The notes beneath the pieces are model-generated. The model had not been told where the DNA came from. It ran no database searches and worked only from the letters and a program-made list of their open reading frames with translations. Positions 44,644-54,136 of a DNA stretch of 64,000 bases are shown here, piece by piece. Position 1 is the first letter of the stretch. The number at the start of each line of letters is the position of its first letter. Position numbers and translations under genes: made by a program. The DNA lies in NCBI GenBank assembly GCA_946413265.1, contig CAMKJU010000006.1:1659-65658 (forward strand). The letters run 5' to 3'. The DNA comes from an uncultured Lentisphaerota bacterium (GTDB taxonomy: Bacteria > Verrucomicrobiota > Kiritimatiellia > RFP12 > UBA1067).

Positions 44644-44650
44644 GGCGCAT

Positions 44651-44681
44651 AGTATAACATACCTACCGGTAGGTATGTCAA
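44651..44681 (-). promoter_or_regulatory. TetR operator and promoter of the efflux operon
   Basis: Perfect 22-bp palindrome ACATACCTACCGGTAGGTATGT (44657-44678), spanning the spacer from TTGACA to the extended -10 TGtTATACT, which lies 7 nt before the ATG. Confidence 0.85.
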
Positions 44682-44736
44682 TGGTAATTGTGGTGTTTTT
44701 GGAATCGCCTAACCAAGTGCTTTACCATTGCTCTTC

Positions 44737-44766
44737 CTTGGGGCGCGCCCTCCTGCGCGCCCCAAG
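44737..44766. repeat. GC-rich hairpin
   Basis: CTTGGGGCGCGC-cctcct-GCGCGCCCCAAG, a 12-bp perfect stem. Confidence 0.6.
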
Positions 44767-45145
44767 TGAAGGCAATTGCTTCGCAAAAGGCAAAACCCAT
44801 GAATGATACCCGCATTAATTTTATCTTTCGCTCATTGTTGATAACTAGTAGATATTTCCTGAGTTTTTTATAACATCTTCTTCTTGATTTTTTGGGGACT
44901 AGCGTTTAACCCTTGAAAATAAAGGGCGAAATGCATCTCTATACATTTTCTTATGACTCATAACTTTCAACTAACTATTATACACTCTTTTGTTTATAAC
45001 TTGACATCTTCCACATTGTTTCTCATCATCTGCTGTGCTCAGGCTTACATCCAATCTGATTTCTCCAAATCTCCTAAACTCCCATAAACTCCCAATCTCC
45101 AAGTAGCGAAAGCAAATGGTGCCTAGTGGACTTCAGTGGGCGATG

Positions 45146-45735
45146 TCTCACGCAGAGACGCAGAGAGGCAGAGAGCGCAGAGAAGTTTTAAAGTAATTTT
45201 CCCTCGATTATTTGGCCACAAAGAACGCAAAGATCGCAAAGTAGGGAATGTCTCAGCTTCTTATTGCTTTCGTTGCTGGGAGATTTGTGACTTGGAGATT
45301 AGGAGGTATTATAATTATACTTTGAATCTCACCCCTTAATCTCCTAAACTCCCCATCTCCCAATAGCGAAAGCAATTATCCTACAACTCTGCGATCTTTG
45401 CGTTCTTTGCGGTTAAATAGACACATGCCAATTCCAAATCTCTGCGCTCTCTGCCTCTCTGCGCCTCTGCGTGAGAACCATCCCCCCACTCCACACTATC
45501 CGACTCGCATCCATTGCTTTCGCTACTGGGAGGTTTGGAGGCTCGGAGATTAGAGAGTATTTTATATTTACTCTAAATCTCACCCTCCTAACCTCCTAAA
45601 CTCCCCATCTCCCAATAGCGAAAGCAATTATTCTACAAAACTCTGTGCTCTTTGCGTGCGTTCTTTGCGGCTAAACGAATAGACATGCCAATCCCAAATC
45701 TCTGCACTCTCTGCCTCTCTGCGCCTCTGCGTGAG
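45146..45735. repeat. Nested palindromic repeat array
   Basis: A arms (45146-45183 / 45439-45476) enclose B arms (about 45215-45241 / 45387-45414), which enclose element C (45263-45376). The C + B-right + A-right block is repeated at 45513-45735. Confidence 0.85.
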
Positions 45736-45796
45736 TCCCCCCTGCGTGAGATAATTAATCAACCACACTCAAACTAGATTTGATATACTAAACGCC

Positions 45797-48118
45797 ATGC
45801 AAGCAAAGTATGATATCATCGTCGTTGGTGGCGGCCATGCAGGTGCTGAAGCAGCCCTCATTGCCGCACGCATGGGCGTGCAAACCCTCCTCATCACCAG
45901 CCGCCTGGACTCAATTGCGCAAATGCCATGCAATCCCTCGATTGGCGGACTCGCCAAGAGCCACCTCGTTTTCGAACTTGATGCTCTAGGCGGTGAAATG
46001 GGCTTCAACGCCGATCTGACTTCATTACAGGAAAAGACACTCAATACTAGTCGCGGACCCGCTGTCCAGGCCACCCGCGCACAATGCGACAAACGCGAAT
46101 ACACCCTTCGAATGCAGCGTGTAATCGCCACACAGCCAATGCTGGATGTTCTTGAAGATGCAGTAGTTGAAGTCAAAGTTGAGGGTTCTTCTGATGGAAA
46201 AGAAGCACTCCAGACGCGCCATGTAATAGGTGTAGAGACCGCTGAACACGGATTCATTCCATCCCGCAACATCATTCTTACCACCGGCACATCCCTCGGC
46301 GGTCGTATTTTCATCGGAAAAGAATCCATGCCATCAGGTGGAGATGGCCGCCCTGCTGTTGACCAGCTCAGCAACTCTTTGCGCCAACTCGGATTTACTC
46401 TTACCCGACTCAAAACTGGCACTCCACCTCGACTTTCTGCACGGTCTATTGACTTCTCCAAAACCATTGAACAGCCTGGAGAAAAGCATCCGTATTACTT
46501 TTCACTTCGTACACCAAACGCTATTTCATCGTCTTTTTCTCCGCATTTACACACAGATTTCAATACCAGATCGTCTTGTGACGATACCCATGTTTCCACG
46601 TGGAAACGTAATCTTTTCGACAAGGATGTGCCAAGCCAATGTTCCATTGGATCCCAGAAGGGAGATGAATACCGCGATTTTATAGGCTTAGGTAGGATTA
46701 TACCTATAAAGCAACCTAGTTCACGCAACGAGTTTAGCCAAGGCCACTCTATGTTGCCATCTACTAGTTCGACGGAATCAGCAAATACCTTGAGCCAATT
46801 ACATAACTCTTTGGAGGAAGGTTTAAACCATGGAGAGCCGGGAACACCGTCAAGACATACAGATGTTTTACATGATCTACATGGACAATCAAAAGTGGTT
46901 TTGCAGCCGGACTTGTTTTCTGTTTCCACGTGGAAACATAATCTGTTTTCAACAGAACACTATGCTCCATGGCCTGTGAATGCACCATGTGTAAGTTGTT
47001 TTGCTACGCATACAACTCCGCGTTCACATGAAATAATCCGAACGCACTTACAGGATAGCGCATTGTATGGAGGGGCAATTGTGGGAACTGGCGTACGGAA
47101 CTGTCCGTCGATTGAGGACAAGATTGTCCGCTTCCCAGCAGCCGAAAGCCACCATGTAATGCTGGAGCCAGAAGACCTTGCTGGAACAATCATTTATCCC
47201 AACGGTCTCTCAAACAGTTTGCCGAAAGAAGTGCAAGAGCAACTTGTCCATTCTGTACCAGGTCTCGAGCATGCCGAGTTCCTTGCCTACGCATACGCAA
47301 TCGAATATGACGGAATCGACGCCCGTGAACTGTCGCACACACTTGAGTCTAAGAGAATTGGCGGGTTGTACTTTGCCGGACAAATCAACGGAACGACTGG
47401 ATATGAAGAAGCCGCCGCGCAGGGGATCATGGCGGGAATCAACGCAGCATTCTCCGTGCTAGGAAAAGAGCCTCTTATTCTAAGCAGACAGGATGCCTAC
47501 ATTGGAGTCCTGATTGACGACCTTGTAACGAAGGGTACTGATGAGCCATACCGGATGTTTACAAGCCGAGCCGAACGGCGGCTCATTCTCCGACAAGACA
47601 ATGCACGTTTCCGTTTAATGCATGCCGCAGACCGCATTGGAGTTTTGCCAAGTGACATTCGTCAAAAGACGCGCCATATACATTCCAGCATTGAGGAGCT
47701 AGAGAATGGTTCCGCGAAAAAGTTGAGAATTGAGGGAAAGCCTTTGACATCGCATTTGAATCTCTGCCAGTCGCTTGACATGGTCCACGAGTTTGTCAGC
47801 AGCCACATAAAGGATTTCCCGTTCAGTCAGGATGACGCCTTGTCCATCATCGAACAACTCTGGATCAGGCACCATTACGCAGGATACATCCGGCAGGAAG
47901 AGATTGCGGCAGCGCGGGCAAAAAAAGACGAAACAATCCGTATTCCCGCTTGGCTAGATTATGACGCATGTGTTGCCGTGCGCTTTGAAAGCCGCGAGAA
48001 ACTCAAGAAGTTTCGACCAGAGACTCTCGCACAGGCAGCGCGAATTCCCGGTGTCAATCCAGCGGACATTGCCGTACTTGCCATCATAATCAAACGGGGA
48101 CATATAAAACGTCAATGA
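45797..48118 (+). CDS. mnmG: tRNA uridine-5-carboxymethylaminomethyl(34) synthesis enzyme MnmG (GidA) with large internal insert
   Basis: Motifs [54 protein letters not shown] and [11 protein letters not shown]. Confidence 0.95.
46591..46608. promoter_or_regulatory. parS-like palindrome 1 (inside mnmG insert)
   Basis: TGTTTCCACGTGGAAACG; the 16-bp core GTTTCCACGTGGAAAC is a perfect palindrome. Confidence 0.6.
46921..46938. promoter_or_regulatory. parS-like palindrome 2 (inside mnmG insert)
   Basis: Perfect 18-bp palindrome TGTTTCCACGTGGAAACA. Confidence 0.62.
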
Positions 48119-50590: not shown

Positions 50591-51199
50591 ATGGTACAAG
50601 TCCTTCCAACACTCGCCGTCGCATGCATCTCGTTTTTGGCAGGTGCGTTGACGCTCTACATTCTGCAGTCAAGGAAGAACCCTTCGAAGGACTCTGCCGA
50701 GAAGGGAACAACTCCCGAACACGAGGTCCTCAAAAAGTACATCGACAAGTTCGCTATGTTCCCGACCTTCCGCGCCTATTCTAAGAAAGAGGCAATCGAA
50801 CAGCTAGTCGATATCGCCGGGCAGCGTTTTCCCGACATCGTGACCAAAGTTGATGAAGCCAAGCAAGCCGTATACAAACGTGAGGAATCAATGGCCACCG
50901 GCCTTGACTACGGCATCGCCGTACCTCACGGGCGAACGGCGGCCGTCAGGCAGATATGCGGCGTCATTGCACTTGTCGACAACTCGAAAAACGACAATGG
51001 CATCATACCAGACTACGAGACAATCGACCATTCAAAGATCCAGATCATCTGTCTCATGCTCATACCGGATTCAATGAACGCTTCCTACCTTCAGATGCTC
51101 AGTACCTTTATCCGCATCTTCCAGAACGCCGACAATCGCGAACAGCTGCTTTCATGCAAAACACCAAAAGACATGAAGCGATTCTTCAATTCACTTTAG
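50591..51199 (+). CDS. Membrane-anchored PTS EIIA-domain protein
   Basis: N-terminal TM segment; REESMATGLDYGIAVPHGR. Confidence 0.8.
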   Translation: MVQVLPTLAVACISFLAGALTLYILQSRKNPSKDSAEKGTTPEHEVLKKYIDKFAMFPTFRAYSKKEAIEQLVDIAGQRFPDIVTKVDEAKQAVYKREESMATGLDYGIAVPHGRTAAVRQICGVIALVDNSKNDNGIIPDYETIDHSKIQIICLMLIPDSMNASYLQMLSTFIRIFQNADNREQLLSCKTPKDMKRFFNSL

Positions 51200-51219
51200 A
51201 TATTGTGTCTTCCCGTAAC

Positions 51220-51242
51220 TTATCAACAATACCTGTAGATAA
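51220..51242. promoter_or_regulatory. DnaA boxes upstream of dnaA
   Basis: TTATCAACA (51220-51228) and TGTAGATAA (51234-51242). Confidence 0.7.
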
Positions 51243-51327
51243 CTTGTAGACATATTATCATTTTTTGTGCGTGGCTTTTACCCCAAAATATGATTGAATA
51301 GTGGTGAACTTTCAAGGAAGAAAAGGC

Positions 51328-52758
51328 ATGTCTGAAGTAGATTCGTCAATAGCTCCTGGAGGATTGTGGGAGCAGATTGTTGAACTGGTGAGGAAACAGT
51401 TTACAACGGAGAGCGACCGTAGCAAAATGGAGCGCTACTTTCCGCTGTTCATATCGCATGAACTAAAAGGGGATACGCTTAGCATTGGCGTGGCTGAAGC
51501 CTTGCAGGTAGAGTGGTTCACTACTCTTTTCAAGGTACCCATTGAAAGCGCTCTTCACGCTTTAGGCCATCCATCGGCGAAAGTCGTTTTTGACATCGCT
51601 GAAAATGCCGGCGCTTCCGTTGTTCAAAAACCGCAACCTTCGCCAGCTCATTTACTGAAGCCATCTTCCTCTTCAACGCCATCTTTAATGGGGATGCCAT
51701 CCACACTTCCCCTTACGGAAAACTACACGTTCCAGAACTTCGTCGTAGGTCCGTCCAACTCGTTTGCCCATGCTACGGCAATGGCCGTTGCGAATGGTCC
51801 GGGACGCACGTCGAACAATCCTCTTTTCATCTATGGAGGCACGGGTCTTGGCAAGACGCACTTGATGCAGTCGATCGGACACTACGTTCTCAAAAACAAT
51901 CCCGCTGCTTCAGTCTGCTACATCACGTCCGAAACCTTCTTGAACGAATATATCAACGCACTCACCAACAACGCAATGCCGGCGTTCCGCGAGCGCTACC
52001 GCAAGGTGGACGTCCTGCTTCTCGACGACGTTCAGTTCATCGCCGACAAACGACAATTCCAGGAAGAATTCTTCAACACGTTCAGCTCTCTCATGACCTA
52101 CCAGAAACAGGTAGTCATGACGAGCGATGTTGCGCCAAAGGACTTGAAGGGATGCGAAGAGCGCCTGACTGGCCGGTTTAAGCAGGGAATGGTTGTAGAA
52201 ATCGAAGCACCATCATACGAAACCCGACTTGCAATTCTCAAATTCAAGGTAAAGATGCAAAGTGCGGGACGCGTCATCCCCGAGGAAATCCTGAAGTACA
52301 TCGCAGAAAACATCCGCTCGCACGTCCGCGCGCTTGAAGGCGCAATCAGCCGCGTCATCACATTCATCGATTTGAATCCAAATATCCCGATGACGCTTGA
52401 AATCGTGCAGCATCTTCTCAAGGATTCAATCGAACAGGAAAAGACGATCAAGGACTTAACGGTCGAGGACATCATGAAAGTCGTCACGGAATTCTACGGC
52501 GTGACGCTTTCCGACATTCTATCCCCGCAGCGAACGCAGACGCTCGTGACGCCGCGTCAGGTCGCCATGTTCCTTTCCGTAAAGCTCACCACGCGTTCGC
52601 TCGTGGAAATCGGCAGGTCATTTGGGAAGACGCACGCGACGGTCTACCATGGCGCACAGACTATCCAAAAGAGAATTGACGTCGAGAGCGATCTGCGCAA
52701 AGTAATTGAAAACCTCACGTCTCAACTCGGACGAAATCCGTCAGAACTATCGAAATGA
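51328..52758 (+). CDS. dnaA: Chromosomal replication initiator DnaA
   Basis: Motifs YTFQNFVVGPSN, NPLFIYGGTGLGKTHL, LLLDDVQF, VRALEGA and PRQVAMFL. Start placed at ATG 51328. Confidence 0.97.
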   Translation: MSEVDSSIAPGGLWEQIVELVRKQFTTESDRSKMERYFPLFISHELKGDTLSIGVAEALQVEWFTTLFKVPIESALHALGHPSAKVVFDIAENAGASVVQKPQPSPAHLLKPSSSSTPSLMGMPSTLPLTENYTFQNFVVGPSNSFAHATAMAVANGPGRTSNNPLFIYGGTGLGKTHLMQSIGHYVLKNNPAASVCYITSETFLNEYINALTNNAMPAFRERYRKVDVLLLDDVQFIADKRQFQEEFFNTFSSLMTYQKQVVMTSDVAPKDLKGCEERLTGRFKQGMVVEIEAPSYETRLAILKFKVKMQSAGRVIPEEILKYIAENIRSHVRALEGAISRVITFIDLNPNIPMTLEIVQHLLKDSIEQEKTIKDLTVEDIMKVVTEFYGVTLSDILSPQRTQTLVTPRQVAMFLSVKLTTRSLVEIGRSFGKTHATVYHGAQTIQKRIDVESDLRKVIENLTSQLGRNPSELSK

Positions 52759-53035: not shown

Positions 53036-53041
53036 TTGTCC

Positions 53042-54136
53042 ATGAAGTTCAAAATCGTAAGGTCCAAGTTCCTCGAAGGACTGAAAAAAGTGCAGAACAT
53101 CGTAGCCACGAAAGGCACGATGCAGATTCTCCAGAACGTACTCATAGAGGCAAAGGACAAGCAATTGCTTCTTACTACGACGGACCTGGACATCTCGATA
53201 CGCAGCGTGATCGGGTGCGATGTTGAGGAGGATGGTTCTACTACGCTTCCAGTGAAGCTTCTTTTCAGCGTAGTCTCCAAGGCGGCGGAAGGTCCTGTCG
53301 AAGTCACCGTGGATGCCCAGGACCGCGCCGTGATCAACGCTGGCACCGCCACGTTCAAACTCGCCGGCATGTCTGTTGTGGACTACCCAGCCTTGCCGAC
53401 TGACCAGAATTCCTTTGAGTACGTCATTCCGCAAATCACGATGAAGGAGATGCTGCGCAAGACTGCTTACGCCGTATCGCAGGATGACACGCGCAAGACG
53501 TTGAAGGGCGTGCTGTCGTCGTTCAAGGACGGCAAGCTGACGATGGTTGCCACTGATGGTCGCCGCCTTGCTCTCGTTGAACACGAGATCGAGCTTCCCG
53601 CAGAGGCTGAGCGCGACGTCATTCTTCCCGGCAAGGTTGTCAACGAACTCCAGCGTTCGCTGACTAGCGACGGCGACGTGCGCATCACCATTGAAAAGAC
53701 GCAGATTTCATTCAACCTCGGCGACACGCGCATCTACTCAAAGCTGCTTGACGAAGTCTATCCTAACTTCCGTCAGGTCATCCCCACCGAATGCGCCGAG
53801 CATATCGTCGTCGACCGCCAGCTCTTGCTGGACGCTCTCGACCGCGCAAGCGTGATGATGTTTGAGGATACGAACTCCACAAAGCTCATATTCGACTCAA
53901 ACCAGCTCATCGTTACGGCCTCGGCTACGGAAGTCGCCGAATCTACGGATATCGTGCCGATCAAGTATGATGGCAGCCGCATAGAAATCGTGTTCAACCC
54001 CACTTACGTGATGGATCCGCTCAAGGCCATTGACGAGGACGAGGTGACGATTGAGTTGAATGATGGAACGAAGCCTGCGATGATCAAGTGCTCGATTCCG
54101 TTCCTGTACGTCATGATGCCGTTGCGCGTCAGTTGA
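53042..54136 (+). CDS. dnaN: DNA polymerase III beta clamp
   Basis: MKFKIVRS start with AAGGAG RBS; motifs TTDLDISI, VATDGRRLA, YPNFRQVIP and YVMMPLRV. Confidence 0.97.
   Translation: MKFKIVRSKFLEGLKKVQNIVATKGTMQILQNVLIEAKDKQLLLTTTDLDISIRSVIGCDVEEDGSTTLPVKLLFSVVSKAAEGPVEVTVDAQDRAVINAGTATFKLAGMSVVDYPALPTDQNSFEYVIPQITMKEMLRKTAYAVSQDDTRKTLKGVLSSFKDGKLTMVATDGRRLALVEHEIELPAEAERDVILPGKVVNELQRSLTSDGDVRITIEKTQISFNLGDTRIYSKLLDEVYPNFRQVIPTECAEHIVVDRQLLLDALDRASVMMFEDTNSTKLIFDSNQLIVTASATEVAESTDIVPIKYDGSRIEIVFNPTYVMDPLKAIDEDEVTIELNDGTKPAMIKCSIPFLYVMMPLRVS

Follow-up and report, generated by a model that had tools for sequence, protein, structure and literature searches.

Candidate parS centromere sites of changed form inside an expanded loop of mnmG in an uncultured Lentisphaerota bacterium

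Introduction

Why should the gene of a conserved enzyme hold a long in-frame insert with two copies of the same palindrome? The question is raised by mnmG (gidA) of an uncultured Lentisphaerota bacterium (GenBank assembly GCA_946413265.1), which lies in a stretch of 64,000 nucleotides of contig CAMKJU010000006.1, called the window in this report. A sequence-only reading of this DNA had taken the palindromes to be a variant centromere housed inside a conserved gene, whose protein would tolerate a disordered loop, and had predicted a ParB of altered specificity. Such a variant would be of note, as chromosomal parS is called highly conserved across bacteria in PMC7022226.

Results

The mnmG gene and its expanded loop

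The mnmG gene occupies positions 45797-48118 of the forward strand as an uninterrupted open reading frame of 773 codons, insert included. In a profile search the protein scores 683.3 bits against TIGR00136, above the curated equivalog threshold of 524.85, and the match is split by the insert, with Pfam GIDA covering residues 6-247 and the NCBIfam model residues 396-767. The expanded loop (residues 237-400; 46505-46996, forward strand) is a translated stretch of low GC flanked by S236 and C401, both nearly invariant. The alignment gives a spacing of 164 residues between them here, compared to 12 to 15 residues in all 27 aligned rows from other phyla, i.e., those labelled as lying outside Verrucomicrobiota, Kiritimatiellae and Lentisphaerae. 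GC content is 0.43 in the insert and 0.51 in the remainder of mnmG, and there are no in-frame stops in the insert, compared to 7 and 10 in the two alternative frames. The earlier description of a stop-free, AT-rich, in-frame insert at what is normally a short loop is borne out by these values. The insert is real but is not a one-off; rather, it is an extreme case of a habit, common across the phylum sample, of placing parS in the mnmG loop, as described below.

The AlphaFold2 model of this MnmG has a mean pLDDT of 82.8 and a pTM of 0.83. While 534 residues have a pLDDT of at least 90, the sole long stretch below 50 is residues 251-377 (46547-46927, forward strand), in which the model has no secondary structure. 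The 164-residue loop is thus predicted to be a disordered stretch that leaves the MnmG fold undisturbed, in agreement with the tolerated disordered loop suggested previously. One piece of the insert filler, at 46861-46895 and outside the two palindromes, is a copy of a dispersed repeat of about 25-33 nt, with five more copies of 92-97% identity on contigs C5, C60, C216 (two copies) and C4 and an additional 24-nt match on C124.

Sequencing runs touch the locus in places. A DNA run (X4) from a separate study yielded contigs that span both insert edges and both palindromes, though not the middle of the insert. RNA-library runs gave short contigs on conserved parts of mnmG, leaving the insert uncovered and having no joints; several carry many differences and are therefore probably from other organisms. 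No splice joints were seen in the mapped contigs, which are weak evidence on this point.

The two palindromes

The sequence GTTTCCACGTGGAAAC is present twice in the mnmG insert, in copies 330 bp apart. The first site, TGTTTCCACGTGGAAACG (46591-46608), has a 16-bp perfect palindrome core at 46592-46607, and the second, TGTTTCCACGTGGAAACA (46921-46938), is a perfect palindrome over all 18 bp with its 16-bp core at 46922-46937. Both are read V-S-T-W-K, so the twin palindromes are as first described. The repeated unit around the palindrome is 24 nt long, TGTTTCCACGTGGAAAC(G/A)TAATCT. By chance, 0.02 palindrome matches at up to 2 mismatches would be expected in the window, and two matches occurred in 0 of 100 shuffles.

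We scanned the whole assembly (4,701,272 bases in 275 contigs, 92.8% complete) and found just two matches to GTTTCCACGTGGAAAC at up to 1 mismatch, both in mnmG; the next-best match has 2 mismatches. The palindrome is therefore not dispersed, and its two copies in 4.7 Mb agree with the small number expected of a chromosomal parS. Allowing up to 2 mismatches, the window contains no match to the canonical parS TGTTNCACGTGNAACA. Canonical sites elsewhere in the assembly, which the sequence-only reading had regarded as telling against it, are likewise absent, the best being a single one-mismatch site on contig C20, compared to two for the reversed control pattern.

The sites here differ from canonical parS at both outer positions of each half-site and do not fit the 16-bp consensus. 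The base flanking the 16-mer is T in 61 of 74 half-sites and C in the other 13, and the site is most aptly described as a palindrome of 18 bp whose half-sites are each one base longer. The outer bases do differ, as had been claimed, although what had been described as a shift by one is better taken as a longer site.

Origin neighborhood

Downstream of mnmG lie dnaA, the origin-region marker (51301-52758, forward strand; Bac_DnaA, 209 bits, and Bac_DnaA_C, 79 bits), and, adjoining it, the beta-clamp gene dnaN (53036-54136, forward strand; three DNA_pol3_beta domains). The parS-like sites are 4.4-4.7 kb from dnaA, whose start is 4.4 kb from the second site, and so they show the closeness to the origin region that had been anticipated for them. 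The cumulative GC skew has its minimum at about 52-56 kb of the window. Matches to the DnaA box TTATCCACA at up to 1 mismatch number 13, compared to 5.6 expected, a count reached in 1 of 100 shuffles, and small clusters of these boxes at 51108-51242 and 55475-55557 are too weak to place oriC.

The same arrangement, with mnmG and dnaA on one contig and 2-26 kb apart, was seen in all five genomes checked within the order. Among five closed genomes elsewhere in the phylum, four have the mnmG site 0.96-1.94 Mb from dnaA, and the origin link is therefore shown for this order and for genome G061 only, unless oriC itself sits at mnmG in those four.

Sites in the mnmG loop of relatives

Relatives that we searched have the same mnmG loop with one to six perfect palindromes, in any of the three reading frames and with no in-frame stop. 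Three forms of the site are found: canonical parS, TGTTCCACGTGGAACA; form B, TGTGCCACGTGGCACA; and the 18-bp form A, YGTTTCCACGTGGAAACR, which is the one found here. When 41 genomes of the order were scanned with a degenerate pattern, it matched 83 times, compared to none for the reversed control. All but two of these matches (81/83) are perfect palindromes, and the two exceptions, which lie away from mnmG, are non-palindromic. Eighty of the 81 palindromes could be placed, either within mnmG or no more than about 250 bp upstream; the 81st, in G040, is not among the matches listed. Eight genomes are free of palindromes, and they are exactly the eight in which mnmG was not found.

Within a form, the bases of the site are identical throughout the order, yet frames 0, 1 and 2 are all used, and the rest of the loop, 21 to 240 residues long, cannot be aligned. 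Perfect palindromes kept while the remainder of the insert drifts are what the sequence-only reading had looked for among orthologs, and we argue from this comparison that the constraint falls on the DNA rather than on the peptide. The loop nevertheless stays open: 56 mnmG loops, extracted by alignment and totalling 4,896 codons, contain no in-frame stops, compared to 132 and 273 in the alternative frames, and in 29 of 29 loci holding both the N- and C-terminal parts of MnmG the two are in one frame. By these counts the loop is translated straight through in these relatives. An excised intron would have no need of the freedom from stops seen in 56 of 56 loops, and an intein or self-splicing intron is not indicated here, as the only Pfam matches in MnmG are to GIDA and related FAD families.

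Sister families have exactly TGTTCCACGTGGAACA at the orthologous sites, a sequence that fits the parS consensus TGTTNCACGTGAAACA as given in PMC7022226. Canonical parS lies inside mnmG in 14 of 18 genomes of other orders in the class and in 25 of 53 genomes of other classes, and a site occurs at the same loop also in classes with MnmG of normal length. Depending on the frame, the canonical site is read FHVEQ, CSTWN or VPRGT. By this distribution, the habit of keeping parS in the mnmG loop is an old one that is shared widely within the phylum. Literature searches returned no title or abstract on parS inside mnmG, nor on a variant chromosomal parS for Verrucomicrobiota, Kiritimatiellae or Lentisphaerae.

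ParB and its recognition helix

The ParB of this genome is encoded on contig C133 (TIGR00180, 158 bits; cut-off, 58.45), where parB adjoins recA and rsfS, separately from the mnmG contig. The genome also encodes a ParA-like ATPase (AAA_31, 190 bits), which falls under every NCBIfam equivalog cut-off, and has an SMC-like open frame of 1105 aa. ParB residue numbers were checked against the Caulobacter ParB chain 6t1f.

Site form and ParB recognition helix go together in all 35 genomes compared (11 with form A, 6 with form B and 18 canonical); most genomes are metagenome bins, so that the assignment of a ParB contig to the genome of an mnmG contig relies on binning. Form A sites, as here, go with a ParB that has Q162Y, R181G and, in the turn preceding R173, one additional residue. 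Form B, the TGTG form, is accompanied by N178H; on a quick ParB tree this combination arose twice, in the genus of the present genome and separately in G032; G039, of the same family as G032, has a canonical ParB and canonical parS. The parS-contacting residues of ParB include Q162, G170-R173 and N178, according to the contact list in PMC7383237; R181 is absent from the contact residues listed there, and its role is therefore a guess. The genome thus encodes a ParB whose helix appears to fit the site, and the altered specificity forecast for it is consistent with changes at or beside DNA-contact positions that co-vary with the site in every pairing. We propose that centromere and ParB changed together in the genus of this genome.

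Alternative explanations

Four other accounts of the palindromes were weighed. The conserved unit might be the peptide V-S-T-W-K (or C-S-T-W-N, C-A-T-W-H), serving MnmG, with the DNA palindrome incidental. The loop is translated, and all 34 in-gene form-A sites use frame 0, giving VSTWK; therefore, some peptide selection, or descent by in-frame duplication, may apply. As the sole explanation, however, we give the peptide very little credence: the wider order reads the same 16-mer in three frames, as CSTWN, FHVE(Q/H) or VPRGT; synonymous variation is zero at all 16 bases; and identical sites lie just beyond the open reading frame in the relatives G016, G025, L095, L100, L101 and L112. The changes between forms are also symmetric in both half-sites, which the peptide does not require, and the loop is predicted to be disordered. 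That the palindromes act instead as hairpins in the mRNA, controlling translation, pausing or decay of the mnmG message, strikes us as similarly far-fetched, although each lies in a transcribed gene and, from its sequence, could form a 6-bp stem with a 4-nt loop. Any compensatory pair would suffice for a hairpin, yet only three exact sequences occur; the same sites flank mnmG outside the reading frame in other phyla, and the co-variation with ParB would be left without explanation.

A different dimeric protein, e.g., one that regulates mnmG or the origin region, could bind the palindromes in place of ParB, whose binding here is predicted from comparison and whose consensus the sites depart from. 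We consider this improbable, because the orthologous sites of sister families are exact canonical parS, because the site form follows the ParB helix in all 35 genomes, one convergent case included, and because the assembly offers no alternative candidate parS. There is hardly any chance, in our judgment, that insert and palindromes are the functionless remnant of an in-frame mobile repeat: about 33 nt of the insert (46861-46895) are indeed copied on other contigs, and the region upstream of mnmG is full of dispersed repeats (236 matches), but neither this genome nor the relatives searched have copies of the palindrome away from mnmG, and classes with a normal-length MnmG carry it at this loop too. 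Unrelated genes of the related genomes searched did not contain the 24-nt unit with its palindrome either. A dispersed RPE- or REP-like repeat was rejected as a class for the palindrome, since its two copies are both in mnmG and the part copied elsewhere is limited to 46861-46895.

Discussion

On this comparative evidence, the two palindromes are very probably the parS centromere sites of this chromosome, and they are most likely the only parS sites of the bacterium, with a changed form that matches the changed helix of its ParB. The idea of a variant centromere housed inside a conserved gene is supported by the location of the sites, by the orthologous canonical parS and by the co-variation with ParB.

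A dimer of the C133-encoded ParB would recognize each site through its helix-turn-helix, load there as in other ParABS systems and form a partition complex a few kb from dnaA, on which the ParA-like ATPase and the SMC-like protein would then act. Within the genus, one group would pair TGTGCCACGTGGCACA with ParB N178H, and the group that includes this genome would pair the 18-bp YGTTTCCACGTGGAAACR, with its longer half-sites, with a ParB carrying Q162Y, the extra residue and R181G.

The proposed system resembles the chromosomal ParABS systems of Bacillus subtilis (Spo0J) and Caulobacter (ParB) in having a short perfect palindrome with a CACGTG center, one to a few sites near dnaA and a helix-turn-helix ParB encoded in the genome, and the canonical 16-mer is found unchanged at the corresponding place in sister lineages. 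It departs from the usual arrangement in that every site falls within the coding sequence of a conserved enzyme, where an expanded loop accommodates it, and in that the site is 18 bp, with half-sites one base longer, and the recognition helix of ParB is changed. Furthermore, parB is unlinked to the sites, and in three closed genomes of the phylum the distance between parB and mnmG is 1-2 Mb. Neighboring parS and mnmG are seen in other phyla also, but there the site is intergenic rather than within the reading frame: in 15 of 80 named loci, labelled Bacteroidota, Ignavibacteria, Chlorobiota and others, it lies up to about 150 nt upstream of the mnmG start and/or about 130 nt past its end.

The divergence of ParB and Noc described by Jalal et al. 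(2020, PMC7383237) is similar in combining a symmetric change of the palindrome with a few changes in the DNA-binding domain. The ParB/Noc switch as presented there is between paralogues and involves residues 173, 179, 184 and 201, with site positions 1 and 6 altered, whereas here orthologous chromosomal ParBs change at 162, in the 170-173 turn (an insertion), at 178 and at 181, with R173 kept. The present protein is not itself a Noc with an NBS site: it has R173, A179, D184 and G201, compared to Q173, K179, K184 and R201 in the Noc type, and it scores 172.7 bits with the NCBIfam Noc model, for which the cut-off is 315. Rickettsia palindromic elements are another parallel, as a stop-free, low-GC insert is tolerated in a conserved gene and one short piece of filler is a repeat, but unlike those elements the palindromes here are non-dispersed and are kept at one orthologous loop across classes.

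We also entertain, as a speculation that is more probably wrong than right by a wide measure, that the position in mnmG is no accident and the specificity switches are no drift, the former reflecting expression coupling and the latter conflict with mobile elements. If so, ParB clamps inside a transcribed and translated gene would tie centromere function to mnmG expression; transcription might sweep the partition complex away or return it to its starting state, or ParB might limit how much MnmG is made. Both switches of the genus could have been driven by mobile elements with canonical parS or ParB-like proteins, and the one-residue insertion in ParB would lengthen the centromere half-site by one base. 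Switches driven by mobile elements would, if true, be a bacterial counterpart of centromere drive.

The presence of two derived centromere forms in one genus would be a rare change in a conserved centromere. Each derived form is paired with ParB changes at or next to known DNA contacts, one having arisen twice and the other having a longer half-site, so that these lineages offer a natural series for how a near-universal protein-DNA pair shifts specificity without loss of function; the three ParB/site pairs might serve as mutually orthogonal tools for labelling DNA. Long "inserts" in MnmG are not necessarily annotation errors, and a parS search confined to noncoding DNA would overlook the centromere of these bacteria. 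In much of the phylum, the centromere appears to be written into a coding frame, where the same DNA would serve both as a protein-binding site and as coding sequence.

The mnmG insert and its palindromes

The mnmG gene of the window (45797-48118) is one open frame of 773 codons, and its product scores 683.3 bits against the NCBIfam equivalog for MnmG (cut-off, 524.85), the match being split in two with the insert between. A 91-sequence MnmG alignment shows S236 and C401 to be nearly invariant; the stretch between them (46505-46996) is 164 residues long in the window protein, compared to 12 to 15 in all 27 rows whose label is not Verrucomicrobiota, Kiritimatiellae, or Lentisphaerae. The insert has a GC content of 0.43, versus 0.51 for the remainder of mnmG, and no in-frame stops, versus 7 and 10 in the other two frames. 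The AlphaFold2 model, for which the 91-row alignment was the input, gives a confident MnmG fold (mean pLDDT, 82.8; pTM, 0.83); residues 251 to 377 have pLDDT values below 50 and no secondary structure, and the loop is thus predicted to be disordered.

The palindrome GTTTCCACGTGGAAAC lies at 46592 and again at 46922, each copy within a 24-nt repeat unit and each translated as VSTWK; the chance expectation for matches of this type is 0.02 in the whole window. The sequence-only reading of this gene (773 codons, a stop-free low-GC insert, and two VSTWK palindromes 330 bp apart) was right in all details. It had also taken the palindromes to be variant parS sites, the ParB-bound sites of chromosome segregation, and had named random dispersal and canonical parS sites elsewhere as points against this. 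We scanned the assembly (4.70 Mb, 275 contigs, 92.8% complete) and found that the two mnmG copies are the sole matches to GTTTCCACGTGGAAAC with up to 1 mismatch, the next-best having 2, and so the palindrome is not dispersed. A degenerate parS consensus revealed no canonical parS in the assembly, with a single 1-mismatch site (on contig C20) versus two for the reversed control pattern, and there are zero sites within 2 mismatches of TGTTCCACGTGGAACA or TGTGCCACGTGGCACA.

Part of the loop filler is a short dispersed repeat, a class to which the palindromes do not belong. About 33 nt of filler at 46861-46895 recur at 92 to 97% identity on contigs C5, C60, C216, and C4, and C124 has a further match of 24 nt. 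Near 46863, a DNA contig from another study departs from the window sequence. The spacer upstream of mnmG (44650-45790) is made up of ~250-nt units, each a composite of short repeats such as a 38-nt TCTCTGCGC...GCGTGAGA arm present in both orientations; these repeats have 236 short matches distributed over many of the genome's contigs. Among named loci, the closest come from ruminant Kiritimatiellae bins, and the stretch occurs in runs of gut metagenomes (sheep, bovine, and other) belonging to 10 studies.

Palindromes in the orthologous loops of the order

A protein search of 40 relatives (24 congeners and 16 members of the order's other families) found mnmG in 32, and we read 29 loci from relatives along with the window's own. 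The N- and C-terminal parts of mnmG are in a common frame at all 29 loci holding both, and there is no internal stop in any mnmG locus read in the relatives. The loop ranges from 21 to 240 residues. Its filler cannot be aligned between species, while perfect 16-bp palindromes centered on CCACGTGG occur at every locus read, usually two to six at each, as the sequence-only reading had anticipated for orthologues. Three forms occur: form A, GTTTCCACGTGGAAAC, in 13 members of the genus; form B, TGTGCCACGTGGCACA, in six members of the genus plus G032 from another family; and form C, TGTTCCACGTGGAACA, in the other families. The parS consensus quoted in PMC7022226 is matched exactly by form C.

With a degenerate pattern that spans all three forms we obtained 83 matches, spread over 34 of 41 genomes; the reversed control had none. 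Perfect palindromes account for 81 of these, and cross-comparison of site and locus positions placed 80 in mnmG or no more than ~250 bp upstream (two upstream sites in G016 and one in G025), leaving a single G040 site unplaced. The two matches away from mnmG (G035 contig C5 and G004 contig C194) are non-palindromic. The eight palindrome-free genomes are the same eight in which mnmG was not detected, which fits a contig left unassembled. The longest loop seen is that of a sister genus in the same family (G090, locus L175), with an MnmG of 967 residues and two canonical sites 543 bp apart. One form-B site (G011, locus L024) lies at nt 391 of mnmG, in a second variable loop near residue 134 in window numbering, where the model pLDDT dips to 68.

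Forms B and C each occur in more than one reading frame, form C being translated as CSTWN at 8 sites, FHVE(Q/H) at 11, and VPRGT at 2. No synonymous change was found at any site in the order-level comparison, and the base changes between forms are mirrored across half-sites. Computation on these sequences shows the constraint to act on the DNA, the peptide apparently not being the conserved unit. In the form-A genomes (L007-L029), all 34 in-gene form-A sites are in frame 0 (VSTWK), and the 18-mer is stop-free in all frames; either in-frame duplication of copies or some peptide constraint would account for this restriction. Across 56 site-bearing loops (4,896 codons) there are 0 in-frame stops, versus 132 and 273 in the other frames, which indicates that ribosomes translate the loop.

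Co-variation of ParB with site form

The best ParB of the window's genome is encoded on contig C133 (locus L004, 1008-2102), flanked by rsfS and a peptidase-like gene with recA upstream; it scores 158 bits against TIGR00180 (cut-off, 58.45) and falls under the Noc cut-off. This parB is unlinked to mnmG, dnaA, or any parA gene, and in three closed genomes of the phylum (L232-L234) parB is ~1.0 to 2.3 Mb from mnmG.

We transferred the residue numbering of Jalal et al. by alignment to Caulobacter ParB chain 6t1f. The parS contacts described in that paper (PMC7383237) include Q162, G170, K171, S172, R173, N178, G201, and R204, with R173 reading base 1. The recognition helix is consistent with the site form in 35 of 35 genomes: it is canonical (LTQ...G-K-x-R-x-x-x-x-N-x-x-R-L-L) with form C (18/18), carries N178H with form B (6/6), and has Q162Y, a one-residue insertion (GKKGR or GKKNR) in the turn G170-R173, and R181G with form A (11/11). 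The altered helix, which tracks the site, is in line with the ParB of altered specificity foreseen from the window.

Site and ParB are both canonical in G090, of the same family but a different genus, and in G039, the other sampled member of G032's family. In a quick ParB tree the genus is a clade and the form-A proteins are one clade, each with support of 100, and G032 is placed among the canonical families, which indicates at least two origins of form B, with an identical substitution. Of 74 form-A half-sites, 61 have T and 13 have C as the base just outside the 16-mer, a bias suggesting that the site is YGTTTCCACGTGGAAACR, with the canonical TG shifted one base outward. The extra residue before R173, the reader of that G, would accord with such a shift.

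Origin region and distribution across the phylum

The dnaA (51301-52758) and dnaN (53036-54136) genes are downstream of site 2 (46921-46938), and the cumulative GC skew minimum is at ~52 to 56 kb of the window. The origin clustering proposed from the sequence holds in the window, site 2 lying 4.4 kb from dnaA, and mnmG and dnaA are on one contig, 2 to 26 kb apart, in all five order genomes checked; computation establishes the closeness for the window's order. Five closed genomes elsewhere in the phylum all have a perfect parS inside mnmG, 23 kb from dnaA in G061; in G097, G100, G113, and G091 it is the single perfect parS and lies 0.96 to 1.94 Mb from dnaA. Closeness in one of five counts against a general rule across the phylum. 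In those four genomes, either dnaA or mnmG is distant from oriC.

Among full-length named loci labelled Kiritimatiell- or Pontiell-, 11 of 12 have perfect canonical sites within the open reading frame, and such sites include those of cultured Pontiella sulfatireligans F21 and Pontiellaceae B1224. In the twelfth (L111), the loop retains a 1-mismatch relic, and two perfect sites follow immediately after the stop. Perfect canonical sites are internal to the open reading frame in 4/4 loci carrying a Lentisphaer-, Victivall-, or Spyradenecus label and in 0/10 labelled Akkermansia or Akkermansiaceae. In other phyla, sites flank mnmG at 15 loci. One locus labelled Ignavibacteria (L116) has TTTTTCACGTGAAAAA-type palindromes on either side of mnmG, which may be another derived parS form.

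An even draw across the phylum covered 81 genomes, of which 79 gave a match, and we read 73 new loci. With up to 1 mismatch allowed, mnmG contains a site in G090, in G084, in 14 of the 18 genomes drawn from the class's other orders, and in 25 of the 53 from other classes. The same loop is used in 21 of these 25, mostly with one FHVE(Q/H) in a protein of ~608 residues; in the other four the site is at nt 1568, not in the usual loop. These four (L180, L181, L185, and L187, from the six genomes of family f32) have perfect canonical sites in the C-terminal region, translated FHVEH. The remaining 28 other-class genomes have no site at this threshold within the 3.3 kb read (f26, 14; f33, 8; f32, 2; f40, 2; f37, 1; f39, 1). 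Decayed site copies (FHMEQ, FQVEL, VSTWEH, and VSTRKH) reveal site turnover.

Proposed mechanism

ParABS and parS are well known, and parS beside gidA is common. Our literature search, which did not cover Livny et al. 2007, found no report of parS within the mnmG frame across much of a phylum, of a loop enlarged for up to six sites, or of a derived chromosomal parS (the 18-bp form included) with matched ParB-helix changes. We established by computation the location and exclusivity of the sites, the open frame, the canonical identity in sister lineages, and the co-variation with ParB. The window's genome also encodes an SMC-like protein and a ParA-like ATPase (AAA_31, 190 bits; under the NCBIfam equivalog cut-offs). 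We infer that ParB would bind and load at the mnmG palindromes, with individual residues putatively assigned to individual site bases, and that the ParA-like ATPase and the SMC-like protein would act on the ParB complex.
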